Source: Escherichia phage JS10. Taken from it: a stretch of 64,000 nt of DNA. The translations under genes were made by a program, and so were the position numbers. Shown piece by piece: positions 6,401 to 31,415 of the stretch (position 1 is its first letter; every line of letters begins with the position of its first letter). The stretch is from the sequence record EU863409; one strand, 5' to 3'. The notes beneath the pieces were generated by a model, which worked only from the letters and a program-made list of their open reading frames with translations, ran no database searches and was not told the DNA's origin.

Positions 6401-6663
6401 TGTAGGAATCGAGCTCCTTCTAATGCATCATCAAGATTATCAAACTCATCGACGTAATCAATACCGCCAACTTCATCTTTAGCGTATAGCCAGTACCGTT
6501 TAAATTCATATTCGATAATAAAGTGGTCACCTTCAATCTGGAGAGCCCCATCACCATTAAATTGGACTGCATAACCTGTAAAGCGGACATCATTCAGGAG
6601 TTCTTCTTTCATAGCAATCATTTCCAAGTTTTTATCGTAATTAGAGAGTTTTATTTTAATCAT
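6397..6663 (-). CDS. hypothetical acidic protein
   Basis: 88-aa ORF; ATGA overlaps on both sides. Confidence 0.5.
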   Translation of the reverse strand: MIKIKLSNYDKNLEMIAMKEELLNDVRFTGYAVQFNGDGALQIEGDHFIIEYEFKRYWLYAKDEVGGIDYVDEFDNLDDALEGARFLQ

Positions 6664-6989
6664 TTCGCAGCCTTAACAATTTTCAGGTCAACGAATTTTT
6701 TCTTACGCTGGTTCTTCATACGACGGATGGTTTTGTCTGTGATTTCACCCGGATGCCAAGCTTTAGATTCAACACCGAAGGCAGCAACATCAAACTCATC
6801 AAGAATATATTGAACCAGGATTTCACGAATACCATTCTTACCGATTTTTTGGTCTTTAGAATGCATAATTGGTAACAGTTCAGCAACCCATTGGTCAAGA
6901 ACCTGAGGAGTTACAAAGCCAGTTTTCATCAGTTCATTAACTTTATCGAAAGCGAAAGAGTTCAGTACGTTTTTAATAGCTTGTGACAT
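6660..6989 (-). CDS. hypothetical protein
   Basis: Start at internal ATG (MSQAIKN) directly downstream of a promoter cassette; shares 26 identical nt of RBS plus first codons with gene 13642..14484. Confidence 0.5.
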   Translation of the reverse strand: MSQAIKNVLNSFAFDKVNELMKTGFVTPQVLDQWVAELLPIMHSKDQKIGKNGIREILVQYILDEFDVAAFGVESKAWHPGEITDKTIRRMKNQRKKKFVDLKIVKAAK

Positions 6990-7059
6990 AATAATTTCCT
7001 CAGTTTTAAAATTTATAATCCGTAGGACCATTATACTCTGGTCCCAAGAGTTTGTAAAC
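6990..7059 (-). promoter_or_regulatory. sigma70-like early promoter with stem-loop over -10
   Basis: -35 GTTTAC (plus 7054-7059), 18-bp spacer, -10 TATAAT (7030-7035); hairpin GGACCA-N7-TGGTCC (7025-7043). Confidence 0.5.
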
Positions 7060-8547: not shown

Positions 8548-8776
8548 TAGTTCCATATGGGATGTAAATCTGGATAAGGAACCCAGTATCATCAAAAGAG
8601 AAGTAGACGGTAGGTTTAATACCATGAATCTCTGACAGAGCATAGATATCTTTAAGGTCTTCTTCCTTATCTTTAAAGAATTCTGGGTTCAGGTCACAGT
8701 CATGGAAGTACCATTCTTGGCCAAACTTGTCCCAAGCAGCCCAATCAGTAGCTACATACTCTTCAAAACGTTTCAT
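8480..8776 (-). CDS. hypothetical acidic protein
   Basis: 98-aa ORF; ATGA overlap with upstream gene. Confidence 0.5.
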   Translation of the reverse strand: MKRFEEYVATDWAAWDKFGQEWYFHDCDLNPEFFKDKEEDLKDIYALSEIHGIKPTVYFSFDDTGFLIQIYIPYGTNEDEVIKTWDYQGVISCGPKVN

Positions 8777-9000
8777 TCTTTCACCTTCATCATTTTAGAA
8801 ATAACACTATGAACAGACTGGATTCGTTTTTCGAACTCAGAATCTTCAAGACCCTTTTCAGTACTCAGCGCACCAATCATCACAAACAGCAATCCAAATG
8901 GGATAACCAGGATTAAAAGGCACACAATAAACAGGACAAATGTAATATTGGCCAGGATATCAGAAACAGCATTACGAAATTTATTCATACGATAGTCCAT
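8773..9000 (-). CDS. small membrane protein
   Basis: 75-aa ORF with one long hydrophobic helix. Confidence 0.5.
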   Translation of the reverse strand: MDYRMNKFRNAVSDILANITFVLFIVCLLILVIPFGLLFVMIGALSTEKGLEDSEFEKRIQSVHSVISKMMKVKE

Positions 9001-9094
9001 GTATTAGTTACAACAAATAACCATTGAGCAGGATACTCAACACCCATGCGCCGGATAATATCATTCATAGATTCGGTTAAGGCATAAAAATTAA

Positions 9095-9568
9095 TCATTT
9101 AAGCGATTTCCTCAGTTGTTTTTTAAATGAATCGACCATTTGTTTCTTTGTGTCAGATTCATTATAAGTCATTCCATGTGAAAGCATTTCAGCAATCATT
9201 TCTTCCTTACCTAATCTACTGAACTCTTTGGTTTTATCAGGAACGAAATTAGGATGGATATTGTTTTCAGTATAATCAGATTTCAGATAGACCAGCAAAT
9301 TCTCTAACCATTCGAGGTAGTCAACATTTTGACCTTTAAGACCAGAACGGTTGAACTTATGCTTCATTTGTCCTTCTGCAGCATTGCACAGGTTACATAG
9401 TAAACCACGAACCTTACCAGCTTTTGGCCCGCTCAATTCATGGTCGTGGTCAAGGTGGTTACTTTGAACATCAGGGTTTAATTCACGTTTACAAATCAAA
9501 CACTTACCACATTGTGCATCATAAAGTTTTTGTTTTTCTTCTTTGTATAATTTGCCGGTCAACAACAT
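9095..9568 (-). CDS. 49: endonuclease VII (Holliday-junction resolvase, gp49)
   Basis: 157-aa ORF with zinc-binding Cys cluster and HDHE motif matching T4 endo VII. Confidence 0.88.
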   Translation of the reverse strand: MLLTGKLYKEEKQKLYDAQCGKCLICKRELNPDVQSNHLDHDHELSGPKAGKVRGLLCNLCNAAEGQMKHKFNRSGLKGQNVDYLEWLENLLVYLKSDYTENNIHPNFVPDKTKEFSRLGKEEMIAEMLSHGMTYNESDTKKQMVDSFKKQLRKSLK

Positions 9569-9603
9569 AATAAACCCTTACCATTATTAGATAAGGGTAT
9601 TTA

Positions 9604-9789
9604 TTATTTTTCAAATGTGCTATAGAACGAACGGTGCAACCGTTTAAATTGACGAATCATCTTTTTGGTAGGACGAGTATACAATCCCACACAGGTGGCC
9701 ATAAACTGGTCAGTAGGGCTTCCTTTGATAAGAAGTTTCCAGACCTTGTCACCGTTTAACTTTTCGGTATAGACTAATGCAGTTTTCAT
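9604..9789 (-). CDS. hypothetical protein
   Basis: 61-aa ORF; ATGA overlap. Confidence 0.4.
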   Translation of the reverse strand: MKTALVYTEKLNGDKVWKLLIKGSPTDQFMATCVGLYTRPTKKMIRQFKRLHRSFYSTFEK

Positions 9790-10088
9790 GCGACCTCAAA
9801 TTCATTATCATCGTTAGTCCAAAAACACCAGAATGAAGCTTTAGTATCTTCAAACATTTCTTTAGTGTATTCGTATACCTTACCATTGAATTCGATAGCA
9901 GTTACGCCAATGATTCCAGGATTGCCCCATGGAGAAATCTCCACCTTCAAGATTTTAACTTCAGCACCTTCACAGAGCTCGCCTGACTCAAAACCGCGAT
10001 TGCCGTTTAATTCAGGCCAGTCAACATAATGGTCGACATCTTCTTCAGTAATACGAACAGTTTTACCTTCAAATTCAAATAAATTCAT
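9786..10088 (-). CDS. hypothetical acidic protein
   Basis: 100-aa ORF. Confidence 0.5.
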   Translation of the reverse strand: MNLFEFEGKTVRITEEDVDHYVDWPELNGNRGFESGELCEGAEVKILKVEISPWGNPGIIGVTAIEFNGKVYEYTKEMFEDTKASFWCFWTNDDNEFEVA

Positions 10089-10261
10089 CAGAAGGCCTCA
10101 TCAGAAAAGCGGAGTTGAGCTTCAAGCCAATGAATATAATCCGCTGCGGCAAAAATTAAAGCAGATTCTTCATCGGGTAACTTACGAGAATCCGACAATT
10201 CATAAAGCGAATGTTCAATCAGACGGCCTTTATGACGGCCAACTTCAATTTTGGTACTCAT
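10088..10261 (-). CDS. hypothetical small protein (57 aa)
   Basis: Unlisted ORF MSTKIEVGRHKG...; GGAG SD; first gene after promoter at 10262..10331; stop overlaps next ATG. Confidence 0.4.
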   Translation of the reverse strand: MSTKIEVGRHKGRLIEHSLYELSDSRKLPDEESALIFAAADYIHWLEAQLRFSDEAF

Positions 10262-10331
10262 ATCCAAACTCCATATCGATTAAATCATTGTTTGAAGGTT
10301 CATTATACTCTATTTCGGAATCGTTGTAAAC
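10262..10331 (-). promoter_or_regulatory. sigma70-like early promoter
   Basis: -35 GTTTAC (10326-10331), 18-bp spacer, -10 TATAAT (10302-10307); hairpin 10343-10364 just upstream. Confidence 0.5.
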
Positions 10332-10377
10332 CGGTTCCTCTGGCTCGGTAGTTTCCCACCGAGCGACATACCACGGC

Positions 10378-10686
10378 TTAACGGTCACACCACCAACTAC
10401 TTACTTCAAAATCAGGCTCGCCGTCTTCCCAATACCAAGGGCCGATTGGATGCCAATCACCATGCTCATCTTCTTCAAATTCTTCGGATTCGAGCCCAAC
10501 GTATTGCCATTGGACTTCATAAGCAATGTCACCGATTACAACGGTGTTCTCGCCATATGGGTGAGCTACAACAAAGTCTATACCTTCTGCTTTAGCCAGC
10601 CAAACCATATATTCGTATAGTTTATATTCTAGGTCATCTTCGGTGCCATCACCTAGAAAAATGGTCTGTTCATTTAATTCAATCAT
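10378..10686 (-). CDS. hypothetical acidic Trp-rich protein
   Basis: 102-aa ORF; ATGA overlap with nrdC. Confidence 0.5.
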   Translation of the reverse strand: MIELNEQTIFLGDGTEDDLEYKLYEYMVWLAKAEGIDFVVAHPYGENTVVIGDIAYEVQWQYVGLESEEFEEDEHGDWHPIGPWYWEDGEPDFEVSSWWCDR

Positions 10687-10946
10687 TTAAAATATGCTCG
10701 CAGTTGGTCAAAGCCGCCAATAGAAGTTCCATCAGGAGCAAATACCTGAGGCATAGTCAAACCTACTTGAGATTCACGACCAAGAGCAGCCAGGAGTTCA
10801 GCAATCTTCTCATCATCAAATACGCCTTTTTCCGGCATAACGTTAATGAATTCGTAAGGTTGTTTCTTAACATCAAGTAGACGTTTGGCATTATCACAGA
10901 AAACACAACGGTGAATATTTGAATCGTAACCATAAACTTTAAACAT
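10683..10946 (-). CDS. nrdC: NrdC glutaredoxin/thioredoxin
   Basis: 87-aa ORF with CVFC redox motif, matches T4 NrdC closely along its length. Confidence 0.9.
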   Translation of the reverse strand: MFKVYGYDSNIHRCVFCDNAKRLLDVKKQPYEFINVMPEKGVFDDEKIAELLAALGRESQVGLTMPQVFAPDGTSIGGFDQLRAYFK

Positions 10947-10947
10947 T

Positions 10948-11190
10948 TTAAATTCCTAATACTTGTTTGAATGCTTCAGAACGGTCAAGTTCTGTTCCAT
11001 ATTTTTCTAGGTGTTCGTATTTTAAATCATACACATCAGATAGTATATTATTATACGAACGAGTTAAAGCAGATTTCAATACTGAATAACTGTCCGGGAA
11101 TTTACCATGCTCTTTATAATAAGCCAGAGTAAGTTCGCGGACTGCCTTATCGGCAGCCTCTACATATTCTTTACGCTTTGCCATTTTCAT
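10948..11190 (-). CDS. hypothetical protein (80 aa)
   Basis: Start placed at internal ATG beyond stop of upstream zinc-ribbon gene. Confidence 0.4.
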
Positions 11191-11392
11191 CTCGCTCAAA
11201 TCGGTGTTTACAATGGCGGCATTTATACTGAAGCGGATTATGACGCCATTGAACCAACTGGACCTGTTCAGTTCCACATTCAGGACAATTTGGAACATTC
11301 TTAGAAGCTTTTTCACGACGTTCGACAATTTTAATAATTTGATTCCAATCAGGAATAGTTTGGTCAATATCGTCAGCTAATTGGTATTTCAT
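11171..11392 (-). CDS. zinc-ribbon protein
   Basis: 73 aa with CPEC...CRHC four-Cys motif. Confidence 0.5.
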
Positions 11393-12399
11393 TTCAACAG
11401 CTCCAGAGCCTGTTCAAGACGGTCTAAACGATTGGTAGACTCTTCCCAAAGTTTCTTGGCAGCAGTATATTGTCCGGTCAGTTTTTTGTTGATAGCAAGG
11501 GCATCTTTATACGCTTTTTCTAAGGCAACGATTTCCGGTAACTTGGATTTAGTAATTGGTGTATGGGCCATGATAGGGCTGTTCAAGTCGTTAATCAAGT
11601 CTTCTAATGTAGCAGGCTCTTTATCAGTGTTCACAATTTCCTCACATTTTTCTTGGTAAATTTCAGCATCAGTTTTTGGAACAGGGCATTTGATTTCGCG
11701 AACTGTTACTAAAACTTCATATCCTTTCCATCCTAAGTGGTGTTTAACTTCTTGGGTCTCATATTTCTCTACTGTATCCATCAAAGCTAAGGCTTGTTCG
11801 ATAGTATTCAAGGTATCGTAAGCAATATCTTGATACTTTACAACTTCCGCATCATCTTTGGGTTTCCTATTTGGTGACCAGATAACAGAAATAAGCACCT
11901 TTCCTTTATAGCCGTTTGTTTTAATCATGCAATTTGCCATAGGATGAATGGTGCGGCTATCACCGGCAACTACTGTTTTAGTGGCGGCTTTGAGGATTAA
12001 TGCAGAGTTAGCCTTGAATTCAGCGGCCCAACGTTGTGGAAATAAACTACTAGGGTCCATACCTTTAATTTTGACATAACCTTTTATGGTATCACCAAAC
12101 CATTTGTAGCTAACAACATGGCTAGAACCTGGGTGTTTCTCTTTGCCAAACTCTGAAAGGATATCCTTATTAACCAACCGCGAAAGCAGTCGAGAACCTT
12201 TAAATGTATCTACGATATCAGGAATAAACAAGCGGCCCGCGATCTTTTCGATTTCAGCTTTGAAACAGCGCGATAATGCATCATCAATTTGGTCTACCCA
12301 TTTATTGATATTAGAAACTATTACCACATATGGGGTTAATGGAGGGGTATTGGCAGTGATATACGTAGTAAAGGCATTGATGTATTCAGTACGAGTCAT
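11389..12399 (-). CDS. hypothetical protein (336 aa)
   Basis: Start at internal ATG just downstream of promoter 12400..12457; C-terminal coiled coil. Confidence 0.55.
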   Translation of the reverse strand: MTRTEYINAFTTYITANTPPLTPYVVIVSNINKWVDQIDDALSRCFKAEIEKIAGRLFIPDIVDTFKGSRLLSRLVNKDILSEFGKEKHPGSSHVVSYKWFGDTIKGYVKIKGMDPSSLFPQRWAAEFKANSALILKAATKTVVAGDSRTIHPMANCMIKTNGYKGKVLISVIWSPNRKPKDDAEVVKYQDIAYDTLNTIEQALALMDTVEKYETQEVKHHLGWKGYEVLVTVREIKCPVPKTDAEIYQEKCEEIVNTDKEPATLEDLINDLNSPIMAHTPITKSKLPEIVALEKAYKDALAINKKLTGQYTAAKKLWEESTNRLDRLEQALELLK

Positions 12400-12457
12400 G
12401 ATATTCTCCTCAGTAGTTGATAAAAGGATTATACTCCATCCATCCTTGGATGTAAAC
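12400..12457 (-). promoter_or_regulatory. sigma70-like early promoter with degenerate PeSL core
   Basis: -35 GTTTAC (12452-12457), 18-bp spacer, -10 TATAAT (12428-12433); CTCCTCAGTAGTTGATA proximal block. Confidence 0.5.
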
Positions 12458-12458
12458 A

Positions 12459-13340
12459 TTATTTTAGAGCTAATAGTGCCGCACTGAGCTTGTCACGCTG
12501 GTTTTCCATATTCTTGATGCGGGTCAATACGTCTTGAATACTCTTTTTCTCATCTTCAATCTGACCATTTAAACGGTGGATTGATTCCTGAATGCTATCT
12601 GCATAATAGGTCTCAATAGGTTTCATCGTAGGGTTAGTAACAACCAAAGAATTATCAGGTTTAATTTTCCAATGATACGGTTCGGAATTGAATGGACTAG
12701 GCACAGCAGTGGTTTTGAATTTGTCATAGGCTGCATACTGGCCTACGCTGTCACATGATACTGTAGAGGTAGCGATAGATATACGACGTTCCATTTGTGG
12801 GTCCTTTTGTTGAGATTGATAAGGGGTATAAGACAAAAGATATTCACGAGTTAGTTTAACATTAAAATACACTGCATCGGCTCGCCCAGAACAATCAGCA
12901 TATTCATCGGTTGTAACCTTATATGATTCTACAGCCTTAATACGAGTCATTGCTTCTCTGAATAAGGTTTCGAATGCTTCACGAAGGGCCTTATTACCTT
13001 TTGAGGTAGGACGGAAACGAACTTGAATACCGTCAGCCAGAATATTAATGACTAGGTTACGAGCCGTAAAATTAATATTCTTGATATTAACAGGAACCGT
13101 AGAAATACGTCCTGCAGTGGCCAAGAGGTCTTTGATATTAGCTCGCAATGTTGCACCAAACAGGTGGGCTGGGCAACGGCAATAATCGTTCAAAGAACCA
13201 ATATAAGTTCCTTTACGACCTACACCATAAGTATAATTACCATTACAAATATGACCAAAGTCGGCCAGCCGATCGATAGCGATACGACGAGTCGTGTCAT
13301 GGTCGTATATAGAGTATTCTTTACGTGTTTTAATGTTCAT
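12459..13340 (-). CDS. hypothetical protein (293 aa)
   Basis: Long ORF, C-terminal coiled coil; alternative start 13364. Confidence 0.55.
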   Translation of the reverse strand: MNIKTRKEYSIYDHDTTRRIAIDRLADFGHICNGNYTYGVGRKGTYIGSLNDYCRCPAHLFGATLRANIKDLLATAGRISTVPVNIKNINFTARNLVINILADGIQVRFRPTSKGNKALREAFETLFREAMTRIKAVESYKVTTDEYADCSGRADAVYFNVKLTREYLLSYTPYQSQQKDPQMERRISIATSTVSCDSVGQYAAYDKFKTTAVPSPFNSEPYHWKIKPDNSLVVTNPTMKPIETYYADSIQESIHRLNGQIEDEKKSIQDVLTRIKNMENQRDKLSAALLALK

Positions 13341-13341
13341 A

Positions 13342-13557
13342 TTAAAGTCCAAATAATTTTTCATAAAATTTAGCGAAAGGCCATGCGATACACATTATAA
13401 TGCCCACTATCCAGAATATAGGCCATACTAGTGTAATGAATACTGCATCATAGCTTGATTCAATTTCGATTGGATTCCAATCACCCGATTTATGAATGAT
13501 AAAGGTCGTCATAAATCCTAGCACAAAGTAAAGGAGAATAAAACCTAAGATTTCCAT
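13342..13557 (-). CDS. small membrane protein
   Basis: 71 aa, two predicted transmembrane helices. Confidence 0.5.
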   Translation of the reverse strand: MEILGFILLYFVLGFMTTFIIHKSGDWNPIEIESSYDAVFITLVWPIFWIVGIIMCIAWPFAKFYEKLFGL

Positions 13558-13558
13558 A

Positions 13559-13639
13559 TTAACCTATAATGTTTGAGAAAATTAGCCACAGAATACCTGT
13601 GGCTATGATTACATAACCAAGAACAGCGAGCCATTCCAT
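13559..13639 (-). CDS. hydrophobic mini-ORF (26 aa)
   Basis: MEWLAVLGYVIIATGILWLIFSNIIG; AAGGA SD; packed between two genes with 1-2 nt spacers. Confidence 0.3.
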   Translation of the reverse strand: MEWLAVLGYVIIATGILWLIFSNIIG

Positions 13640-13641
13640 AA

Positions 13642-14484
13642 TTAATCCTTAAGAAGATTTAGGATATCGATATATTTCTGGCGTTCAGCCTTAGCTTTGG
13701 CATTCAGGCCAGAGAGTCGGAAAATCTCATCATCTTGTTGTTGGATTGTAACATTCAAGCAAGTAAGCAAATTGCTAAAATACTCGATTTGGGCTTGATG
13801 TTTCTCATTGCTGCGCACTGGCACAGGTTCTGGTTTAGGAGCTTCTGAATGCTCTTCAGCCAGGTCTTTAATTTTATAAAGTTTAATACGTTGGCCTACT
13901 CCAGTTTCAGCATCACCAAAACTAAGAACACCGTGTTGTTCTAATTCAGACAGGGCCAAGCGCAGATGGAACTTCCAGTTGTCATATTGACAACCACTAA
14001 AAGTTGAAATGGTATACTCATTTTCATTTCCAGGGTGGTTAACAATATTAAAGATAATCCAATCACCTGAACCGTTAGTCTTAAATGTCATTTGTTTATC
14101 AAGACCTTTTGCAAGGCGAGCACCAAGAGCCAGTAGACGTCGTTGGTTGGCATGAAGGTCTTGAACAACTTCGCCAAATGACATCGCCGGGATTAAACGA
14201 CCGTAGAGGTCGTAGCCTTTGTTATAATTTTTAAGAATAATTTTGGCATTAGCACGAGACAACATACCTGTTTTACGAAGAGTTTTCATGACCCGGTCTT
14301 CTAAGGTAAACAACCCTTTGGTCTTGTCAAAGATTTTAGTGAAGTCATCTTTAACAGTACAAACATTGAACTTGTCCCACATCATATATAGGACCTTTTC
14401 AACCACTTCTTTAGAACTCGGAATACGACCAAATTTAACAACTTTTTTAACTTCAGAACGAATTTGATTAATTGCTTGTGACAT
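13642..14484 (-). CDS. hypothetical protein (280 aa)
   Basis: ORF starting MSQAI with the same 26-nt 5' block as gene 6660..6989. Confidence 0.55.
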   Translation of the reverse strand: MSQAINQIRSEVKKVVKFGRIPSSKEVVEKVLYMMWDKFNVCTVKDDFTKIFDKTKGLFTLEDRVMKTLRKTGMLSRANAKIILKNYNKGYDLYGRLIPAMSFGEVVQDLHANQRRLLALGARLAKGLDKQMTFKTNGSGDWIIFNIVNHPGNENEYTISTFSGCQYDNWKFHLRLALSELEQHGVLSFGDAETGVGQRIKLYKIKDLAEEHSEAPKPEPVPVRSNEKHQAQIEYFSNLLTCLNVTIQQQDDEIFRLSGLNAKAKAERQKYIDILNLLKD

Positions 14485-14551
14485 AATAATTTCCTCAGTA
14501 AGTAATTAAGAACCTAGAACCATTATACCATCCTTGGTATAAAGCGTTTAT
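14485..14551 (-). promoter_or_regulatory. promoter-like element with stem-loop over -10
   Basis: -10 TATAAT (14522-14527) within hairpin TTATACC-N6-GGTATAA; -35 weak. Confidence 0.35.
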
Positions 14552-15072
14552 GCGAGAACCGTCTTTAAACGCTCTTCAAATTTCTGAAGCAGAGCTTGGC
14601 GTTCAGCTCGTTGTGATTTGTACTGCTCGATACGACCTGAAGTGAGGGCGTACTGTTCGTTTACTGATTCCCGCATGAATTCAGGAATCTCTTTACAAGC
14701 TTTGATTTCGTCAAACTTATCAATAACCGCTTGTTGTTCGGCAATCAAGTTATCAAAATAAGCGATATCTGATTTAACGTTTGCCAGGTCAGATTCGGTA
14801 GGCATTAAACGTTTATTACGCTCAGCTTGATAAGCTTGGTTGGTTTCACGACTCCAGTGAAGAGTACGTTTTTTGTTGGTGTTTTTATAGAGCTCTACAA
14901 TACCAACTGAATCGATGATAGCAATCCAGTTCCAACGGTTTTTGTAAATCTCTCCTCCAGATACGGTAATCTCATTACCACAAGCAACATCATTAAAGAA
15001 CTTGCTTTGTTTTTCAGATTTGAAATTACCATTGTTAAAATTAATCAGTGAAAAAATATCTTTAGCGTTCAT
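14548..15072 (-). CDS. hypothetical protein (174 aa)
   Basis: ORF immediately downstream of canonical PeSL-like cassette. Confidence 0.55.
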   Translation of the reverse strand: MNAKDIFSLINFNNGNFKSEKQSKFFNDVACGNEITVSGGEIYKNRWNWIAIIDSVGIVELYKNTNKKRTLHWSRETNQAYQAERNKRLMPTESDLANVKSDIAYFDNLIAEQQAVIDKFDEIKACKEIPEFMRESVNEQYALTSGRIEQYKSQRAERQALLQKFEERLKTVLA

Positions 15073-15127
15073 GATAACCTCCAGTAGTTGATAGGTCTAT
15101 AGTATCATGTCTAATGGAGATGTAAAC
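15073..15127 (-). promoter_or_regulatory. PeSL-like promoter-stem-loop cassette
   Basis: core TTGATAGGTCTATAGTATCA; -35 GTTTAC; 9-bp inverted repeat arms (one mismatch), proximal arm includes GGAGG SD. Confidence 0.55.
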
Positions 15128-15129
15128 AA

Positions 15130-15471
15130 CTAATAGAAACTTTTTTCACCGGCTTGCCCACTAAACCAGGCGGATTGTGTGTTCTCTTTCCGTTGGTGTT
15201 TAATACGAATAAGGTATTCGTTCCTGATGGCGCAGAGTTCATCTCTGAAGTCGCCTGCCAACTTAACCTGCTTACGGTCTAGATTTATTAAGGCTTGGGT
15301 CTTCGCGGCCAAGCGCAACCTCTTGAAGTCTCCTCCTTCACAACCGGTTTTATAAACCTTCTCAGCGAATTTGTGTTTAGATTCATTATCATAGTCTTCA
15401 ATAGACTGTTTCATGGCATTAGAGTATTTCAACTCTGCTTTTACAAGGTCATAACTAAATTGTTCGAACAT
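15130..15471 (-). CDS. hypothetical protein
   Basis: 113-aa ORF. Confidence 0.5.
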   Translation of the reverse strand: MFEQFSYDLVKAELKYSNAMKQSIEDYDNESKHKFAEKVYKTGCEGGDFKRLRLAAKTQALINLDRKQVKLAGDFRDELCAIRNEYLIRIKHQRKENTQSAWFSGQAGEKSFY

Positions 15472-15481
15472 AATTTCACCT

Positions 15482-16462
15482 TTATTTCAGAAGGGTAACT
15501 TCGGCGATTTCGCTCCAGTCATTTTTATCGGTGGCAATGAAGTCCGCCAGATAAAGAGCTGTACGTAATGATACGTTACGAAGACGAGATACATTGGCCT
15601 TCATCCATGCTAGAGCTTGATAAGTCTCGGCATCAGTCAGACCTCGGTTTTGCATCATATCGGTGGACAGGATAACGTCTTCAACACGAACCATAATCTC
15701 TTCGTTCGAGTGAACTCCGAGGTCTAAGTAAACTGAACGAGATACTAAAGCCTGGAGGTGTGGAGCAAGTTTAGTGCCACGTTCTAATTCACGGTCAATA
15801 TCAACGTTGGTGATGAATACGATGGTGCCTTCATATTCGAATTCTTTATCGATATTTTTATCATCGAGATAAGAACTTGAAGTGCTCCAGCACACCTTAC
15901 GTTTCTCACCGGTATCCAATGCGGCTTTCAGAAGGTTCAGGATATCCATGTCAGAGAATACATCAACATCATCAATAAGAAGAACACTATTAGGGCCGCG
16001 GTTATTCCAAAGTTGCTCGTAAAGACCGATTCCACTAATCTTTCCGTTGATTGATTTATATTCGATAGTTTCATTTTCGTGGGCATTTTGTAATGCTTTA
16101 TCCAAAGAGTATGTTTTACCAATACCTGCGGCACCAGAGATGATAAGGGAACGAATTTTACCATCAATGATTCCGTTAGTCATCATGTTCATTACTTTAA
16201 AACGTTTGTTGATGCGATGTTTCATTTCTTCAGCAGATTCAGTAACCATTGCAGGAGCTTCAGCACCTTCCATTTCAACGTCACATTTGAACACCCATAC
16301 ACCACGTTCAACACCATCAATCTGTACAAATACCTTGCCATCACCGAGGTGAGCTTCAGATTCATGAATTTTATTAGGGAACCAGGTTTTACCTGAACTC
16401 ATGAACGTACCAGAGATTTCATTACCGCGATAGATACCTTTGTTGATTTTGATAGTTAACAT
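15482..16462 (-). CDS. P-loop ATPase (Walker A GAAGIGKT, Walker B LLIDDVD)
   Basis: 326 aa from internal ATG with AAGGAG SD; N-terminal approx 100-aa domain followed by ATPase core. Confidence 0.6.
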   Translation of the reverse strand: MLTIKINKGIYRGNEISGTFMSSGKTWFPNKIHESEAHLGDGKVFVQIDGVERGVWVFKCDVEMEGAEAPAMVTESAEEMKHRINKRFKVMNMMTNGIIDGKIRSLIISGAAGIGKTYSLDKALQNAHENETIEYKSINGKISGIGLYEQLWNNRGPNSVLLIDDVDVFSDMDILNLLKAALDTGEKRKVCWSTSSSYLDDKNIDKEFEYEGTIVFITNVDIDRELERGTKLAPHLQALVSRSVYLDLGVHSNEEIMVRVEDVILSTDMMQNRGLTDAETYQALAWMKANVSRLRNVSLRTALYLADFIATDKNDWSEIAEVTLLK

Positions 16463-16526
16463 TTTATTCTCCTTCACTCAGTAGATTTGATAGGTCTATA
16501 ATAACATGTTTAAAGCAGATGTACAC
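16463..16526 (-). promoter_or_regulatory. PeSL-like cassette (variant, repeat copy 1)
   Basis: GATAGGTCTATAATAACATGTTTAAAGCAGATGTACAC; -35 GTGTAC, -10 TATTAT; palindrome AACATGTT. Confidence 0.5.
16489..16526 (-). repeat. 38-bp direct repeat (copy 1) of PeSL variant core
   Basis: GATAGGTCTATAATAACATGTTTAAAGCAGATGTACAC; second copy at 16801..16838. Confidence 0.7.
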
Positions 16527-16528
16527 AC

Positions 16529-16759
16529 TTATTTTGCAATAATTTCACAGAAGCCATCTTTATAGCGGGCCCATGTTTCACCATTTACTGTATAAAGAGC
16601 AGCTTTACGACCATTAGGCATAACAACTTGTTTACCTTTGTTTTTAGTTACAGCTTCAATAATTTCGTATTCTTCAGCACGATCAGCTTTAAAGGTATCT
16701 TCCAGAGCGATCAAGTTAGTAGTGTAAGAACCGTATTTGTAATTTTTGATAGCGTACAT
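16529..16759 (-). CDS. hypothetical protein (76 aa)
   Basis: Small ORF flanked on both sides by 38-bp direct repeats of the PeSL core. Confidence 0.5.
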   Translation of the reverse strand: MYAIKNYKYGSYTTNLIALEDTFKADRAEEYEIIEAVTKNKGKQVVMPNGRKAALYTVNGETWARYKDGFCEIIAK

Positions 16760-16838
16760 TTTTATATCTCCGTTTGGTTTAAGTTTTCAGCTCTTTAGCT
16801 GATAGGTCTATAATAACATGTTTAAAGCAGATGTACAC
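16760..16838 (-). promoter_or_regulatory. PeSL-like cassette (variant, repeat copy 2)
   Basis: Identical 38-bp core to copy 1 at 16801-16838. Confidence 0.5.
16801..16838 (-). repeat. 38-bp direct repeat (copy 2) of PeSL variant core
   Basis: Identical to 16489..16526; the two copies bracket ORF 16529..16759. Confidence 0.7.
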
Positions 16839-16850
16839 TACTTTTTTGCA

Positions 16851-16880
16851 CTAAACCCAAAAAAGGCCCGAAGGCCTTTT
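16851..16880 (-). terminator. intrinsic terminator
   Basis: GGCC-UUCG-GGCC hairpin with A/U-extended stem and U-rich tail after nucleotidyltransferase gene. Confidence 0.5.
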
Positions 16881-16881: not shown

Positions 16882-17892
16882 TCATTTATAATACGAGTTA
16901 TGGTTTTCTAGGTAAACCTGCTCAACGAACTTGTCCCAGAACTTCATGTCCACCTTCGCAGGCATACCATTCTTAGCTGCCCAGATGGCATTGGTTTCGA
17001 CTTCATCAACTATAGCTTCGAGCTCAGCCTGTACATCTTTAAAAGCATGTAGCCCTTGTTTGATTTCAAGGATAAATGGTGCTGTTCGTAAAGGATATTG
17101 AAGGTCGCCGGTCATATAGATTTCCTTCAACTGATATCCAGCACGATAAGCATGGCTCAGAGCTTTCCAATCAATGCCTTCATTAGCTTCGGCCTTACGA
17201 GCACGTTCACCATATTCAGCATCAAGTTTATTCAGAGATTGCTTAAGCTCGATTAATGACAAAGTAGTTTGGTACTTACGTCCGAGGACAGTATAGAACG
17301 TTTGAGGACCTGTTTTCTCATGGTTATGAAATACCCATTCACAGAACTCGTTTTCAGGAAGTCGATGTTTGATATCTTCTACCTTAGTGCGACGTTGCTT
17401 AGTAGAACCATCTTCTTGATAATCAACCCACTGTTCAGGAATCTGGTTAACGATAGCCAGTACACCACGCAGAGCAGCCAGACGAGAACCCTTAACACCA
17501 TATTTAGAAGCTTGCTTACGGACGTACCCTAAATAGGCTTTCATGTTAGTTGTATAGAAACGCGAACGGTTATCTTGGATAAATTTCCATACATCAGGTA
17601 AATCAGATTTAACCACCATTTCGGGTGGAGTGTGGAGCATATCCAGAGCAACGGTTTCGCCATCAGCAGCCAGTTTAAAGAAATATTTCAGGCTGTAAAG
17701 CTCATGGTCAACATCATCTTTAGTGTTTTTGGAAGCAGTGTTATTCGTGTTCAGGTTGGTATGGTTCATTGCCGTACCTAACAGAATATCACGCGGATGT
17801 GGAACAAAGATTTCTTTAAAATCGACATCAGATTCCGGAGTACTTGTTCCATAAAGATGGCTACCGAAGTAGCCTTTCATAACTGTTCTCAT
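16882..17892 (-). CDS. Pol-beta-superfamily nucleotidyltransferase
   Basis: G-S-x10-D-V-D motif (GSHLYGTSTPESDVDF) near N-terminus; start at ATG forming ATGA overlap with upstream stop. Confidence 0.6.
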   Translation of the reverse strand: MRTVMKGYFGSHLYGTSTPESDVDFKEIFVPHPRDILLGTAMNHTNLNTNNTASKNTKDDVDHELYSLKYFFKLAADGETVALDMLHTPPEMVVKSDLPDVWKFIQDNRSRFYTTNMKAYLGYVRKQASKYGVKGSRLAALRGVLAIVNQIPEQWVDYQEDGSTKQRRTKVEDIKHRLPENEFCEWVFHNHEKTGPQTFYTVLGRKYQTTLSLIELKQSLNKLDAEYGERARKAEANEGIDWKALSHAYRAGYQLKEIYMTGDLQYPLRTAPFILEIKQGLHAFKDVQAELEAIVDEVETNAIWAAKNGMPAKVDMKFWDKFVEQVYLENHNSYYK

Positions 17893-18341
17893 TCTTTGTT
17901 CTCGAAGTGAATTACAGGACACATCTTAGATTTACGAGCTTTAATGTATTGGACGACGATATTTTCTTTAGTTTCTCGGCCTTCACGCTCAGCTTGAATA
18001 CGTTGCCATTCCTTTTCTTCTCTACGTGCATCATACCACGCGTGTAAATTCATCGCACCTAATGCCAAACCAATGGATAGAGCAATAATAAGAGCTATTG
18101 CAATCAACCCTAAAACAAACCCTAGACTCAACAGAACAGGAGTACTTAATACAAAGAAATGCTCTAATACACCAGCTCCTGCAACAGTTAATCCAAAAAG
18201 CGTACTACCTGCAACAACAGCACAAGCAAAACAAGCCCAAACCATTTTCCAGAAATAAGCACACAAAGAGTGTGGTCGAGAATGACGGTCATAAAAACGG
18301 TCGTGTAATTTAACGTGCCAAGAGTTTGAATTGATAATCAT
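17889..18341 (-). CDS. membrane protein
   Basis: 150 aa with several hydrophobic helices. Confidence 0.5.
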   Translation of the reverse strand: MIINSNSWHVKLHDRFYDRHSRPHSLCAYFWKMVWACFACAVVAGSTLFGLTVAGAGVLEHFFVLSTPVLLSLGFVLGLIAIALIIALSIGLALGAMNLHAWYDARREEKEWQRIQAEREGRETKENIVVQYIKARKSKMCPVIHFENKE

Positions 18342-18351
18342 AATATTTTCC

Positions 18352-18912
18352 TTAAGGGTTCATAGTTGGGATAACAGAGTTCAGATAAGAGACTAAAACT
18401 TTTAGCTCGTCTTTAGTAAATACCACTTCATTTTCACCGTCGTGTCTTTGGGTCAAGGATAGCAAATCACGACCCTGGTGTTGATACACGGATAATTCGG
18501 TATCATAATCCAGTTCTTCTTCATCACCTTCAAATGTTTCACTAGAACGAATCACCGCATCTTGACCTGGAACTTTCCATTCAACTTCAGGCTTGCATTC
18601 TTCCTGGAACAGTTTAAAAATACATTTAAAGAAATTACTAGAATTCCTAATGCTTAGACATTCAGTATCAGTTTCGATATTAAATCCGTCTTCATTTTTA
18701 TAAATTTGGGCCCATACATCGTCGTTAATATCAAACGATGCTCTATGGCGTCCATCAAGATACCCATCTTTATCCAAAACCTTTAAATCATAAAGTGGTT
18801 TAATATCTTGGATAGTTAGTACGATTTTATCGTCTTCTTGTGAAAGCACAATTGCATTATCAACTACTTCAGCGGTCAGTTCACCAAACAATTCAGTTGT
18901 TTCAATAATCAT
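18352..18912 (-). CDS. hypothetical acidic protein
   Basis: 186-aa ORF. Confidence 0.5.
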   Translation of the reverse strand: MIIETTELFGELTAEVVDNAIVLSQEDDKIVLTIQDIKPLYDLKVLDKDGYLDGRHRASFDINDDVWAQIYKNEDGFNIETDTECLSIRNSSNFFKCIFKLFQEECKPEVEWKVPGQDAVIRSSETFEGDEEELDYDTELSVYQHQGRDLLSLTQRHDGENEVVFTKDELKVLVSYLNSVIPTMNP

Positions 18913-19892: not shown

Positions 19893-19949
19893 ACTGTTCT
19901 CCTCATTAGTTGATAGGTCTATAGTATCACGTTCCTAGAGGATGTAAAC
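19893..19949 (-). promoter_or_regulatory. PeSL-like promoter-stem-loop cassette
   Basis: core TTGATAGGTCTATAGTATCA; -35 GTTTAC (19944-19949); bulged inverted repeat. Confidence 0.55.
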
Positions 19950-19952
19950 ACT

Positions 19953-19984
19953 AAAACGAAAAAAGGTCCCACCGAAGTGGGACC
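19953..19984 (-). terminator. intrinsic terminator
   Basis: GGUCCCAC-UUCG-GUGGGACC hairpin followed by U6CGU4. Confidence 0.65.
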
Positions 19985-29263: not shown

Positions 29264-29949
29264 TACCAGCCCTCCATAGGAAATTCCAGATATACTTGAG
29301 CATTAACACGGATTTCATTAGTAATCTTTTTAACACGGTCAGTATTACGAGAGACACGACCAAACCAGCGCCAACCGTTACTTACCGCACGAGAACCCGT
29401 ATGCCATGTCTGCCAATCAAACTGGAGCAATGTGCGGTCAGGAGCATCCCACTTGGTTAATTCATTGGACTCAATTTTTTCCAGAACTTCTTTATGCCAC
29501 TGGCGATAGATAAGTTCGCCTTCAGGAATCTGACTAAATTGCGCAGTTCCGGTTGCAAAATAAGTAGGACACACATCAGCGTTAACAAGACCAAGAATAT
29601 GTTCAGAATGGTATCGAGGATTATCATAATCAGGTTGGCCTGCGGTAATAAAGTGTTGACCCACCGGAATATCCGGACGTGGTACATCATCATGGTGATA
29701 ACCTGGGATAGCAGGATACCAACCAGGCATAAGCATATGAACTCGGGAATCAAATACAACCTGGTCGGTGTTCCACTCATCTGGCAGGTTCATAATGAAG
29801 CTGCGAGTAATAGGGCCACCATTATCAAAAGCGAAAGCCAATGAGCTGTTGAAGAACATAGTTTCGTTTTTGATTTTATCGTTAGAAATTTTACCGGCAA
29901 AACTACCCACTGCACGAGCTTGAGAATTAAAAGTTTTCGGGCTGTTCAT
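29263..29949 (-). CDS. hypothetical protein (228 aa)
   Basis: His/Trp-rich ORF, function not recognisable. Confidence 0.55.
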   Translation of the reverse strand: MNSPKTFNSQARAVGSFAGKISNDKIKNETMFFNSSLAFAFDNGGPITRSFIMNLPDEWNTDQVVFDSRVHMLMPGWYPAIPGYHHDDVPRPDIPVGQHFITAGQPDYDNPRYHSEHILGLVNADVCPTYFATGTAQFSQIPEGELIYRQWHKEVLEKIESNELTKWDAPDRTLLQFDWQTWHTGSRAVSNGWRWFGRVSRNTDRVKKITNEIRVNAQVYLEFPMEGW

Positions 29950-29963
29950 AATATTTTCCTCAA

Positions 29964-30254: not shown

Positions 30255-31214
30255 TTATTTTTCGAAAGGACGAATTAAATGTTGGTTAGCCTTGAAACGA
30301 TTAACATAGTCTTCGCGACCCAGGGTGTTATACATATTAACCACAGCTTGGTAGTTTTCCCAGGCATACTCACGGAACCATCCAGAAGTAATGGAGGTAC
30401 AGACTTTTTCCAGAGCAACATGGAAGCTCACGGATGGAGAGATATTGAACTCATTAGGAACCTGCGAACGCTCTAGAGCAAGTACACATGCTTCTTCATA
30501 TACGCCAGCCAGTTTAATAGCTTCAGGCAAAGCTTCAAACTTCTCACGTGAGGTCATGACTTCAGAACCATCTTTCATATAAAAGGTATACGCTGGGCGT
30601 CCAGCCAATGCCACAGCTTCATGGATAGAGTCATGGTCTAATGTATAAATGGTATCATTAAAGAACGATGATTTGTTTACATCCAATTTAGGATGAGAAT
30701 AGCTCAACGTTTCTTTCTGGCGTTGCAGCATGATTTCTTGGAGCTCTTCATTCAAGGTTACACCTTTATTACGAAGATATTTGATGTGGGACATCGTCTT
30801 CAAAAAGAACGGGTTGTTCTTCAAATAACGATGGCTCATTTTGATAGCCAGACAGATATCAGGCGTGGCCCAATAGAAACCAGTAAGACGATCCTTTTTA
30901 ATATGATTTTCAGCATATTTCAGGAGACGATAACTTGAGGTGAAATCTTCGTCCTGAAGCTCACCGGTAATTTCTCGTACGTTAGTCAGAGCACGGACAA
31001 TATAAGCTTCAAAATAGGTTTCTTTACCATTGTACATACATTTAAAGGCCTGGACATCTGGATTATCCACAGGGACATGGGCGCCGAACATCCGGGCTTT
31101 AAATTGATTCCATGAGCCTTGGTCGGCAATAAAATCCCAATCAGAATTTTCAATATACTTACTTTCAATCAGACCAGCGTGGTGCAGTGCACGAGAACCA
31201 ATAACTAGCATCAT
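30255..31214 (-). CDS. hypothetical protein (319 aa), possible nucleotidyltransferase-like N-terminus
   Basis: N-terminal IGSRAL...SDWDF weakly resembles a G-S...D-x-D fold motif; otherwise unassigned. Confidence 0.5.
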   Translation of the reverse strand: MMLVIGSRALHHAGLIESKYIENSDWDFIADQGSWNQFKARMFGAHVPVDNPDVQAFKCMYNGKETYFEAYIVRALTNVREITGELQDEDFTSSYRLLKYAENHIKKDRLTGFYWATPDICLAIKMSHRYLKNNPFFLKTMSHIKYLRNKGVTLNEELQEIMLQRQKETLSYSHPKLDVNKSSFFNDTIYTLDHDSIHEAVALAGRPAYTFYMKDGSEVMTSREKFEALPEAIKLAGVYEEACVLALERSQVPNEFNISPSVSFHVALEKVCTSITSGWFREYAWENYQAVVNMYNTLGREDYVNRFKANQHLIRPFEK

Positions 31215-31241
31215 AATATTTTCCTCATTAATAAAGACGAG

Positions 31242-31394
31242 TTACTTCATATTTACCCAGTTCAGATTTTTTGCTTCAATACGCGTTGCGGCTAGATTAG
31301 CAGCCTCTAGTGAAGAAAATTGAACCACTTGGGAAGTATTCTGCCTTACGCCACCTTGTGGGTGAGTAACAAAAACAATAAGAACATTATACAT
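31242..31394 (-). CDS. hypothetical small protein (50 aa)
   Basis: Unlisted ORF MYNVLIVFVTHPQGG...; GAGGAAAA SD; shares 16-nt initiation region with gene 30255..31214. Confidence 0.35.
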   Translation of the reverse strand: MYNVLIVFVTHPQGGVRQNTSQVVQFSSLEAANLAATRIEAKNLNWVNMK

Positions 31395-31415
31395 AATATT
31401 TTCCTCAGAGTAAAC

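Follow-up and report, generated by a model that had tools for sequence, protein, structure and literature searches.

A 26-nt translation-initiation block shared by two unrelated genes of a JS98-like T4-type phage, and shorter start blocks that act as deletion and insertion junctions

Introduction

Two kinds of short shared sequence are familiar from phage T4. Deletions in rII are bounded by direct repeats of about 8–20 bp, the segment between them being lost and one hybrid copy left behind; and internal-protein genes that are otherwise unrelated start with a common leader, MKTYQEFIAE, the capsid targeting sequence (CTS), whose 10 residues form a functional protein signal and are conserved as a peptide in a variable locus.

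Modular shuffling by promoter-early and promoter-middle stem-loops (PeSL/PmSL) has been published for T4-type phages (Arbiol et al. 2010, PMC2839356; Comeau et al. 2014, PMC4122927). These cassettes consist, in order, of a stop codon, a sigma-70-like or Mot-box promoter, a stem-loop, a Shine-Dalgarno sequence (SD) and a start codon; the stem-loop overlaps the -10 box, lies between -35 and -10 or stands just upstream of the promoter. Copies are dispersed in hyperplastic regions, and the crossovers reported fall between -10 box and ATG (PMC2839356, PMC4122927). Known sites of the translational repressor RegA lie behind a poly(A) tract and take in the AUG, in RNA that is A+U-rich and unstructured (e.g. 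AAAUUAUGAUU of gene 44; PMC3014915). T4 gp55.2, whose homolog is one of the two genes discussed below, inhibits E. coli topoisomerase I (PMC4396842).

Here we analysed a stretch of 64,000 nt of Escherichia phage JS10 (EU863409; hereafter the window), which belongs to Dhakavirus (JS98-like T4-type phages) and is 96% identical to JS98. An earlier note, made from the letters of this stretch, had reported that two unrelated genes share an identical 26-nt ribosome-binding-site and start-codon block, and had taken such shared gene starts for traces of homology-driven exchange of gene bodies.

Results and discussion

Extent and statistics of the shared block

The 26-mer GCTTGTGACATAATAATTTCCTCAGT (plus-strand sense) is found exactly at 6979–7004 and 14474–14499, two occurrences in total, the second being a direct repeat of the first at a distance of 7,495 bp. 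Its minus-strand sense is ACTGAGGAAATTATT-ATG-TCA-CAA-GC, i.e. a GAGG SD, an 8-nt A/T spacer, ATG and the codons for S, Q and A. Over a wider span the copies agree at 31/32 bases (6973–7004 vs 14468–14499; repeat family D7), and after the single mismatch ATT (I) comes next in both the 55.2 and the nrdC.6 homologs. The limits that the earlier note gave for the two genes are correct (Table 1), as is its statement that the proteins are unrelated beyond residue 5: the family alignments match with an hhalign probability of 2% and fall into separate Pfam/PHROG families (DUF7570/PHROG 1475 vs PHROG 2257), which rules out deep homology.

Table 1. Features of the window discussed in the text
Feature	Position	Strand	Remarks
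55.2 homolog, 109 aa	6660..6989	-	Pfam DUF7570, PHROG 1475
26-nt block, copy 1	6979..7004	-	SD GAGG, 8-nt A/T spacer, ATG, codons 2-4 of 55.2 homolog
Hairpin GGGACC / GGTCCT around -10 box of 55.2 promoter	7024..7045	-	PeSL-type stem-loop
Predicted sigma-70-type early promoter upstream of 55.2, TTTACA-17-TATAAT (11/12)	7030..7058	-	consensus scan
12-nt ATG block ATGATTGAATTA (start codon + 3 codons, MIEL)	10675..10686	-	deletion junction
nrdC.6 homolog, 280 aa	13642..14484	-	PHROG 2257
26-nt block, copy 2	14474..14499	-	same SD, spacer, ATG and codons 2-4, at nrdC.6 homolog
Predicted middle-promoter-like element upstream of nrdC.6	14522..14546	-	CGCTTTA (MotA-box-like), 12 nt, TATAAT; sequence reading
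10-bp hairpin AGAGCGUUUA...UAAACGCUUU	14541..14575	-	spans nrdC.8 stop codon and Mot-like box
One-mismatch copy TAAGGAAAATATTATG of 16-nt block, start of membrane-protein gene 17889-18341	18339..18354	-	
Third exact copy of 16-nt block, start of 228-aa gene 29263-29949	29947..29962	-	exact match
16-nt block, start of 319-aa gene 30255-31214 (DUF7277/DUF7275)	31212..31227	-	downstream repeat
16-nt block TGAGGAAAATATTATG, start of 50-aa ORF 31242-31394	31392..31407	-	upstream repeat of relatives' deletion

When 100 dinucleotide-shuffled sequences were searched, GCTTGTGACATAATAATTTCCTCAGT matched none of them, even at 3 mismatches. Since this null of pure chance is too lenient, start-anchored all-pairs and column-shuffle nulls were used instead, and the 26-mer stands out against these too. 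With sequences aligned at the start codon, no identity among 101 gene starts of the window, or among the 103 annotated starts of JS98 (5253 pairs), is longer; the runs that come next measure 17, 16 and 15. When columns were shuffled with position-specific composition preserved, the maxima were 10–17 (median 12). If columns are taken as independent, identity at 15 upstream and 8 coding bases together has an estimated probability of ~5e-12 per pair; that model understates the real constraints, but some historical copying event may have occurred.

History of each copy

Most of the related loci that were found share the N-terminus of the 55.2 homolog, MSQAIKNVLNSF, and ATG TCN CAR GCN ATY AAA AAC (MSQAIKNV) begins most of 40 related 55.2 loci in viral contigs. 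Synonymous positions of this 5' end vary freely across the loci (tca/tct/tcc/tcg, caa/cag, gct/gca), so the constraint in 55.2 lies on the peptide and not on an RNA element. The spacer ATTATT is confined to Dhakavirus among the 55.2 loci examined. In Gaprivervirus MN01 the gene starts with gactgaggaatatatcATGactgcatct (MTASITN) and does not carry the block; 6666–7078 of the window (55.2 with its promoter) cannot be aligned to MN01, while the flanks align at 84–89%. The hairpin at the -10 box (6–8 bp) is 100% paired in 14 orthologous sequences, with compensatory changes at 4 of 6 pairs and a pairing score reached by 0 of 500 shuffles; T4 has a terminator hairpin, GGGCTTCGGCCC, at the same site.

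The nrdC.6 proteins start with MSQAIN in Dhaka- and Gaprivervirus, MSV(V/A)IN in T4-type phages and MSITSDAIK in Mosigvirus. Here MN01 has attGAGGAAATTATTATGTCACAAGCAATTAAT, identical to the block at 25/26 positions within a gene aligned at 76.6% identity (p ~0.01), and Mosigvirus has the same upstream promoter region together with ctgaggaaatagttATG; a T4-type start, ATGtcagtagcaattaat, differs from tcacaagcaattaat at only 2 nt. The middle-promoter-like element is conserved in the Gapriver- and Mosigvirus nrdC.6 loci, and the hairpin overlapping it hardly varies among the loci examined; a search upstream of nrdC.6 for a sigma-70 -35 hexamer found none. Matches of nrdC.6 by tblastn were to coliphage-type relatives only (the loci examined belong to Tequatro-, Mosig-, Gapriver- and Dhakavirus), and a profile search for remoter loci gained T4-type loci only. 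Judged from these orthologous starts, each gene carried its 5' end before the related genera split. Inside Dhakavirus the 55.2 copy is constant and only the nrdC.6 copy changes, by CAA -> CAG in 5/6 relatives and by an additional ATT insertion in KIT01. Recent copying or concerted evolution is ruled out by this one-sided variation, and also by the block at nrdC.6 being older than the Dhaka/Gapriver split.

Comparison with PeSL cassettes, and gene-body exchange at the 26-nt pair

The 55.2 site has every part of a PeSL/PmSL cassette. It has the predicted sigma-70 promoter and a hairpin around the -10 box; at nrdC.6 the promoter can be read as Mot-box type (CGCTTTA-12 nt-TATAAT), and the 10-bp hairpin supplies the stem-loop; GAGG-8 nt-ATG is present at both sites. 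Unlike in copies of a shared cassette, the 26-nt identity covers only the cassette 3' end and 8 coding bases, the promoters and stem-loops of the two being dissimilar, and no indel or replacement makes use of the pair. A GTATAATGGTYCTA common to both upstream regions had raised the idea of likeness over the whole cassette, from promoter to start, and was judged coincidental: the copy in 55.2 forms the Dhakavirus-specific arm of the covarying hairpin, whereas the TATAATGGTT of nrdC.6 is ancestral; the 20 nt separating GTATAATGGTYCTA from the block are only ~40% alike; and a third exact copy lies antisense within a coding region at 41165–41178. Downstream of the block, a CGTNCTGAA match is read in a different frame in each gene and was put down to chance.

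According to the earlier note, the block would be a portable 5' end behind which gene bodies are swapped by homologous recombination. Such a process is published for T4-type phages (PMC2839356, PMC4122927), it operates at start blocks of 16 and 12 nt in the same genome group (see below), and 55.2 with its promoter is indeed a divergent module between Dhaka- and Gaprivervirus. However, the MN01 module is bounded at 6665 and 7079, away from the block, and the orthologs of 55.2 and nrdC.6 occupy unchanged map positions in T4, Mosig-, Gapriver- and Dhakavirus. No breakpoint was found at either copy in six Dhakavirus relatives (JS98, IME341, EcWhh-1, UGJNEcP3, MX01 and KIT01), and neither recombinant junction of the pair was found in 50,697 phage records. 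A search for further copies returned the exact 26-mer at these two loci only, in JS98-type genomes only, and the attached genes do not vary in relatives, which leaves exchange at this pair unsupported. The block precedes no third gene body in any T4-type genome searched; in IMG/VR and metagenomes, a version relaxed at synonymous positions precedes only 55.2 or nrdC.6 bodies, with one convergent exception, a 23-nt core upstream of a tail assembly chaperone gene in a contig of an unrelated phage, from which it follows that the block sequence can arise independently. For the 26-nt pair the portable-5'-end model is thus largely refuted, and we consider it very improbable. As direct repeats the two copies could also serve as recombination substrates, and exchange between them would delete 7.5 kb including gene 49, nrdC and nrdH, a loss that would presumably be deleterious.

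Start blocks of 16 and 12 nt as junctions

The earlier note had named a second block, of 16 nt (CATAATATTTTCCTCA), as shared by two gene starts. This block is real, but it has three exact copies (29947, 31212 and 31392) rather than two, with one-mismatch copies at 18339, 6987 and 14482, and here the data directly support the exchange proposal. A 50-aa ORF lies between two TGAGGAAAATATTATG copies, and in relatives exactly the inter-repeat 180 nt is absent: IME341 lacks the ORF, as do most Dhakavirus-level records according to database counts, and relatives without it retain one hybrid 16-nt block. Since the ORF and both repeats are also present in Gaprivervirus VR7, this arrangement looks ancestral. 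In CLB_P2, a 292-nt cassette of promoter and ORF is inserted at 29962/29963, the exact upstream edge of the third copy.

The 12-mer behaves similarly. In IME341, EcWhh-1, UGJNEcP3 and KIT01 it is found at the start of a small membrane ORF and again at that of gene 49.3, a further small ORF lying in between; JS98 has a 331-nt insert with the same 12-mer at its bounds; and the window and MX01 are without the 318–337 nt between the 12-mer copies.

Breakpoints of the kind described for PeSL thus occur at the 16-nt and 12-nt blocks, and the 16-nt block acts as a crossover site as PeSLs do, although the deletions seen here need only an RBS/ATG repeat (12–20 nt) and not a whole PeSL. Both 31212/31392 (180 nt) and 10675–10686 (318–337 nt) show the pattern of the T4 rII deletions, with the difference that the repeats are translation-initiation signals instead of random sequence, so that every deletion or insertion product retains an intact start site; no deletion product of the 26-nt pair is observed. 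These results suggest that an RBS/ATG repeat of 12–20 nt is enough for gain or loss of a single ORF, all products keeping a working start. Their main value is one of calibration: two unrelated genes share a striking 26 nt without this being a gene-exchange scar, while less striking start blocks in the same window are demonstrable deletion/insertion junctions. The exchange idea is right in general and already published as PeSL-mediated modular shuffling (PMC2839356, PMC4122927), to which clean, sequence-resolved examples from Dhaka- and Gaprivervirus are added; current understanding of T4-type genome plasticity is unchanged.

Explanations of the 26-nt identity

We lean, with modest confidence, towards the reading that both copies are strong translation-initiation regions of an ordinary kind that have descended vertically, each along with its gene, and happen to coincide over 26 bases. 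The upstream half (ACTGAGGAAATTATT-ATG) would be one instance of an initiation class favoured by this phage, with GAGG 8 nt before ATG and the consensus TGAGGA-(A/G)-AA-N-ATT-ATG; GAGG stands at exactly this distance in 12 of 103 JS98 gene starts with near-identical spacers (e.g. TGAGGAGAACATT, TGAGGAGAATATC and TGAGGAAAATATT), and TGAGGAAAWTATTATG within <=2 mismatches has 9 sites in the window vs 0.26 expected. Members of the class are A/U-rich and unstructured, and would recruit ribosomes to early or middle transcripts starting ~35–40 nt upstream; promoter activity, transcript 5' ends and the use of both start codons are predicted here from JS98 annotation and consensus scans. Folding of the 5' UTR-plus-start segments is no stronger than that of shuffled sequence (z = +0.78 and +1.28), and sequestration of the start region by RNA structure, also considered, found no support in folding z-scores of -1.3 to +1.3. 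The downstream half (TCA CAA GC) encodes S-Q-A, an N-terminus that each family may conserve independently of the other. Initiation strength and the N-termini would then be under purifying selection that holds both copies nearly unchanged, hence 26/26 identity in JS98 and in the JS10 window; the 25/26 match with MN01 in a less conserved gene speaks for such selection.

A possible, if rather unlikely, alternative is old short-patch gene conversion, in which a tract of <=30 nt, nucleated by pre-existing similarity (CTGAGGAAAT..TT-ATG-TCA...ATT-AA), was copied between the initiation regions in the ancestor of Dhakavirus, or of Dhaka- and Gaprivervirus together, and then kept by selection. The excess over a start-site-aware null would fit such an event, as would the recombination at even shorter start blocks in this genome group. 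Q-A at nrdC.6 positions 3–4 is limited to Dhaka- and Gaprivervirus, and MSQAI is usual in the 55.2 loci examined; the Dhakavirus-specific ATTATT of 55.2 equals the older nrdC.6 spacer, as a short conversion patch would give. However, these two signs conflict in direction, the codons pointing from 55.2 to nrdC.6 and the spacer from nrdC.6 to 55.2, and 2–4 point substitutions suffice to reach identity from the outgroup states. The identity also ends at -15, farther upstream of which each locus retains its own orthologous promoter region, so any conversion tract must have been tiny, and the copies show no concerted change within Dhakavirus. Compatible with independently inherited initiation regions, though we think it improbable, is that the block is a putative binding site for a RegA-type RNA-binding repressor, by which 55.2 and nrdC.6 are co-repressed. 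Anchored at the AUG, GAAAUUAUUAUGUCA agrees with the T4 RegA SELEX consensus aaAAUUGUUAUGUAA at 12/15 positions, and the two block sites rank as the top 2 of 103 JS98 gene starts in this match. Like the RegA operators of T4 and RB69, which are common to many unrelated early mRNAs (PMC3014915), GGAAAUUAUUAUGUCA is an A+U-rich, unstructured site at the AUG with a 5' A tract. Its RegA binding is putative, though, and RegA specificity is loose (~30 target mRNAs), which makes 12/15 agreement within an A/T-rich start region weak evidence; moreover, spacer and synonymous positions differ from genus to genus in both gene families, contrary to what a conserved operator would show. If the operator were real, a repressor recognising GGAAAUUAUUAUGUCA would switch off the topoisomerase-I-inhibitor homolog and nrdC.6 jointly, and a common operator, not ribosome binding alone, would keep the two sequences identical in JS98-type phages. 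The regA gene itself lies outside the window.

Capsid-targeting-type starts

The CTS resembles the 26-nt pair in placing a conserved 5' coding end on unrelated gene bodies; it differs in that MSQAI has 5 residues, occurs in two genes only and has no known signal function. Starts of the CTS type are themselves present in the window, as MKTYQEFI, MKTYNEFI and MKTYKEFI (repeat family D4).

Identity of the two gene starts

The 26-mer, a Shine-Dalgarno plus start-codon block that reads ACTGAGGAAATTATT ATG TCA CAA GC(T/A) ATT AA in gene sense, occurs twice in the window, exactly where the earlier note placed it (6979-7004 and 14474-14499, minus strand), and the identity of the two 5' ends stretches to 31 of 32 bases (repeat family D7). 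According to the JS98 annotation, the genes that follow are homologs of T4 55.2 (6660..6989, minus strand) and nrdC.6 (13642..14484, minus strand). Their proteins were said to be unrelated past residue 5, and this holds: they belong to different families (DUF7570/PHROG 1475 and PHROG 2257), with an hhalign probability of 2%. T4 gp55.2 inhibits E. coli topoisomerase I (PMC4396842). Window 6000-15500 aligns over its whole length with Escherichia phage JS98 (Straboviridae, Tevenvirinae, Dhakavirus) at 96.4% identity, and about 940 T4-type records match it partially.

Shuffles of the window contained no match to the 26-mer with up to 3 mismatches allowed. Because dinucleotide shuffling is not a stringent enough control at gene starts, we aligned all annotated starts at their initiation codons and compared them in pairs (103 starts and 5253 pairs in JS98; 101 starts in the window). 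In both sets the longest identical run belongs to the 55.2/nrdC.6 pair, with 26 nt; the next-longest runs measure 17, 16 and 15 in JS98 and 17, 16, 16, 16 and 15 in the window, and within-column shuffles that preserve position-specific composition reach maxima of 10-17. The identity is therefore real, and neither base composition nor a simple positional consensus accounts for it.

The block is one of 12 JS98 starts (out of 103) with GAGG exactly 8 nt upstream of ATG. The spacers of these 12 starts are much alike (TGAGGA-A/G-AA-N-AT-T/C), nearly all of the 14-17 nt runs ranked below the 26-mer come from this class, and TGAGGAAAWTATTATG is found within two mismatches at 9 window sites (0.26 expected). 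The two segments comprising 5' UTR and start fold no better than shuffled sequence (z = +0.78 and +1.28), as expected of an open initiation region.

Search for exchange at the 26-mer

In IMG/VR, the exact 26-mer is found in 7 stretches, all from genome-size contigs (155-172 kb), and the two copies occur together only in the JS98 contig. With synonymous positions relaxed (GAGGAAATTATTATGTCNCARGC; IMG/VR plus the metagenome collection), the downstream bodies are 55.2 or nrdC.6 with one exception, an unrelated 14-kb viral contig of 42% GC (L077, IMGVR_UViG_2814123064_000003), where GAGGAAATTATTATGTCACAAGC (23 nt of the block, minus strand) stands ahead of a gene for a tail assembly chaperone (PHROG 183, Pfam Phage_TAC_12) whose product begins MSQATITING; this copy is an independent, convergent occurrence. 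Aligning window 5000-16500 by blastn with six Dhakavirus relatives (JS98, IME341, EcWhh-1, UGJNEcP3, MX01 and KIT01) revealed several gene-sized indels, none of them at 6979-7004 or 14474-14499. Synthetic queries built to represent each of the two conceivable recombinant junctions retrieved no record with at least 80% query coverage among 50,697 phage genomes, and gene order at both loci is identical in T4, Mosigvirus, Gaprivervirus and Dhakavirus. Given this distribution of copies, the absent breakpoints and junctions and the conserved gene order, the search for further copies that the earlier note had called for leaves its proposal of gene-body exchange unsupported at the 26-nt pair. Recombination between the direct repeats would remove 7,495 bp and with them gene 49 (endonuclease VII), nrdC and nrdH; we infer that such a deletion would be strongly counter-selected, so the missing products are no proof that the repeats never recombine.

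History and origin of the two copies

Across 40 related 55.2 loci from viral contigs, the 31 distinct proteins mostly share the N-terminus MSQAIKNVLNSF (MTIQIKN in T4-type phages, MSTKIKN in Mosigvirus), there is free variation at synonymous positions (tca/tct/tcc/tcg; caa/cag; gct/gca; att/atc), and spacers differ between lineages, so the coding half of the block is an old feature of 55.2 at the peptide level. The nrdC.6 start of Gaprivervirus MN01 (attGAGGAAATTATTATGTCACAAGCAATTAAT) is 1 base from the block, its 55.2 start being gactgaggaatatatcATGactgca (MTASITN). Mosigvirus PhAPEC2 shares the nrdC.6 upstream promoter region, with ctgaggaaatagttATG and then MSITSDAIK, and a T4-type locus has ATGtcagtagcaattaat (MSVAIN), 2 bases off the Dhakavirus coding sequence. 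Together with the 55.2 N-termini, these starts indicate that each half of the block is ancestral at its own locus.

Over positions -15 to +14, the 5' ends of 55.2 and nrdC.6 agree at 27-28 of 29 positions in Dhakavirus (20/29 in KIT01, owing to an ATT insertion), 19/29 in Gaprivervirus, 16/29 in Mosigvirus and 13/29 in T4; exact 26/26 identity is limited to JS98 and this phage. Concerted evolution of the copies is ruled out, because within Dhakavirus nrdC.6 alone varies (CAA to CAG in 5 of 6 relatives, the added ATT in KIT01) while the 55.2 copy is constant across the relatives compared. The nrdC.6 copies of the window and MN01 are identical at 25 of 26 positions in a gene aligned at 76.6% identity (chance about 0.01 by our own arithmetic), which points to purifying selection on this start region. 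Between the same two phages, blastn finds no alignment for window 6666-7078 (55.2 plus promoter), the 55.2 proteins are 56% identical and the flanks 84-89%; this suggests that the whole cassette, bounded by the 55.2 and 55.3 stops, either underwent allelic replacement or evolved fast.

On balance, we lean slightly towards an origin in which both start regions, of a preferred class, would each have been inherited vertically; two old N-termini, by chance in agreement, would have been joined to them, and selection would hold both 5' ends in place. A conversion patch of at most 30 nt in an ancestor would account for the statistical excess and for the Dhakavirus-specific ATTATT spacer of 55.2, but we consider it rather unlikely: the codons and the spacer point to transfer in opposite directions, the outgroup states are only 2-4 point changes short of identity, and the identity stops at -15, beyond which each locus retains its own promoter. 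A RegA-type operator common to both genes is a candidate that we offer only as a lead; 12 of 15 positions of the T4 RegA SELEX consensus (PMC3014915) are matched by the block, whose two copies are the top two of 103 starts, but RegA specificity is loose, and spacer and synonymous sites vary across genera.

Promoters and hairpins upstream

Upstream of 55.2 we predict a near-consensus sigma-70 promoter (TTTACA-17-TATAAT), and a hairpin at 7024-7045 has the -10 box of this promoter in its loop. When this hairpin was compared with orthologous loci (L010-L049, L064 and L065), its six pairs were 100% paired at 14 loci with compensatory changes at 4 of 6, whereas 0 of 500 shuffles equalled the score and slid controls were 44-56% paired. 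The arms covary across genera (GGGACC/GGTCC, GAGGAC/GTCCTC, GGGAGC/GCTCTC, GGGGTC/GACCCC), and a GC-rich terminator hairpin occupies the equivalent position in T4. In other lineages a different, Mot-box-type promoter lies at this promoter position, likewise inside a hairpin. The 55.2 cassette has the published architecture and structural features of a PeSL, i.e. stop codon, promoter, stem-loop overlapping the -10 box, Shine-Dalgarno and start codon (PMC2839356; PMC4122927). No sigma-70 -35 hexamer was found upstream of nrdC.6, where a 10-bp hairpin that spans the nrdC.8 stop codon lies ahead of CGCTTTA-12 nt-TATAAT; this region reads as a predicted middle-promoter (PmSL) variant.

Start blocks that mark indels

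The exchange reading does hold at three places in the window: the 16-nt start block that the earlier note gave as a second case, its third copy, and a 12-mer. Two of the three exact 16-nt copies, 180 nt apart, bracket a 50-aa ORF (31242-31394, PHROG 20278). IME341 breaks alignment at 31231/31392 with a 20-nt overlap and reads ...aagtttacTGAGGAAAATATTATGatgctagtt, i.e. the small-ORF upstream flank, one hybrid block and the body of the 319-aa gene. Matches to the 164 nt unique to the ORF are present in 30 phage records (12 at at least 90%; 18 at 80-90%, including Gaprivervirus VR7, VR20, VR26 and SP18) as compared to 44 at at least 90% for the adjoining gene, duplicate GenBank/RefSeq entries included, so the ORF is missing from roughly three quarters of Dhakavirus-level records. 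Since VR7 has the ORF with both repeats (TAATGAGGAAAATATTATG), this arrangement looks ancestral and the absence is a deletion between the repeats. A promoter-like TTTACT-17-TATAAT (31386-31414, minus strand) overlaps the ORF at its start region and at codons 2-3, and loses its -10 box in the relatives with the deletion; such sites are not above chance in number here.

At the third copy, CLB_P2 has a 292-nt unit inserted exactly at 29962/29963, made up of a sequence that resembles an early promoter, a Shine-Dalgarno and an ORF encoding a small signal-peptide-like protein, with a TGA stop that is part of the block's TGAGG. The 12-mer ATGATTGAATTA begins both a small membrane ORF and gene 49.3 in IME341, EcWhh-1, UGJNEcP3 and KIT01, with a second small ORF between, and bounds a 331-nt insert in JS98; the window and MX01 are without the intervening 318-337 nt and have a hybrid junction at 10675-10686. 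Further indels of the region break at ATG/stop overlaps with microhomology of 5-10 nt.

The phenomenon is modular shuffling mediated by PeSL/PmSL elements, as published for T4-type phages, combined with deletion between short direct repeats, a classical process. The 16-nt and 12-nt blocks lie at rearrangement breakpoints as PeSLs do, whereas the 26-nt pair does not and is a real feature that is essentially ordinary in kind; the 16-nt block adds tidy examples of an already known process.

Other repeats in the window

Table. Positions of further repeats, start families and gene-sized indels (the latter as compared to Dhakavirus relatives) in the window.
Feature	Position	Description
Five gene starts (D4)	25808-25859, 26722-26773, 27360-27411, 38750-38801, 39040-39091	About 50 nt in common, encoding MKTY(Q/N/K)EF(I/L)...
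Dispersed early-promoter cassettes (D2/D3/D5)	15075-15148, 16474-16547, 16786-16859, 19897-19970, 24020-24093, 26307-26380, 35543-35616	
Further early-promoter cassettes of D2/D3/D5 type	27446, 30213, 38444, 38810	
Exact direct repeat ACAAAAAAGGCCCAACCTTTCGGAAGGGCCT (D19)	35617-35647, 36240-36270	31 nt; 623 nt apart
ATTGCTTAAG...GTATAATGGTCCTAGG	41140-41178 (+)	Mot-box-like sequence and exact copy of -10-flank motif GTATAATGGTCCTA
48-nt block, four copies (D6)	32507-33271	At tandem small-gene junctions; spacings 219, 207, 291 nt
177-nt unit, four overlapping copies (D1)	59139-59645	60-77% identity; spacings 93, 144, 93 nt; plus-strand structural-gene part
Indel	6656-6665	231-nt ORF after 55.2 stop in IME341, EcWhh-1, UGJNEcP3; junction AAATGA
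Indel	9790-10083	100-aa ORF 9786-10088 missing from EcWhh-1 and UGJNEcP3; junction ATGAA
Indel	13384-13633	Variable small-ORF slot downstream of nrdC.6; ATGGAA at flanks

The capsid targeting sequence is a known case of one 5' end on unrelated gene bodies, and the D4 starts, on otherwise different genes, look like that of the T4 internal proteins. The D2/D3/D5 cassettes read GTTTAC-N17-TA(C/T)TAT-AGACCTATCAA in minus-strand sense, and in several copies the promoter spacer base-pairs, through an inverted repeat (e.g. CTCCATTAG / CTACTGGAG), with the GGAG Shine-Dalgarno that lies downstream; the cassettes are PeSL-like elements. The D19 repeat reads as terminator-like (on the minus strand, a GC-rich hairpin and then a T run). 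The element at 41140-41178 is antisense, within minus-strand ORF 40542-41297. D6, made up of conserved gene ends and AAGG-ATG start regions, is probably the mark of a small paralogous gene array, and D1 probably reflects repetition within a baseplate or fibre protein.
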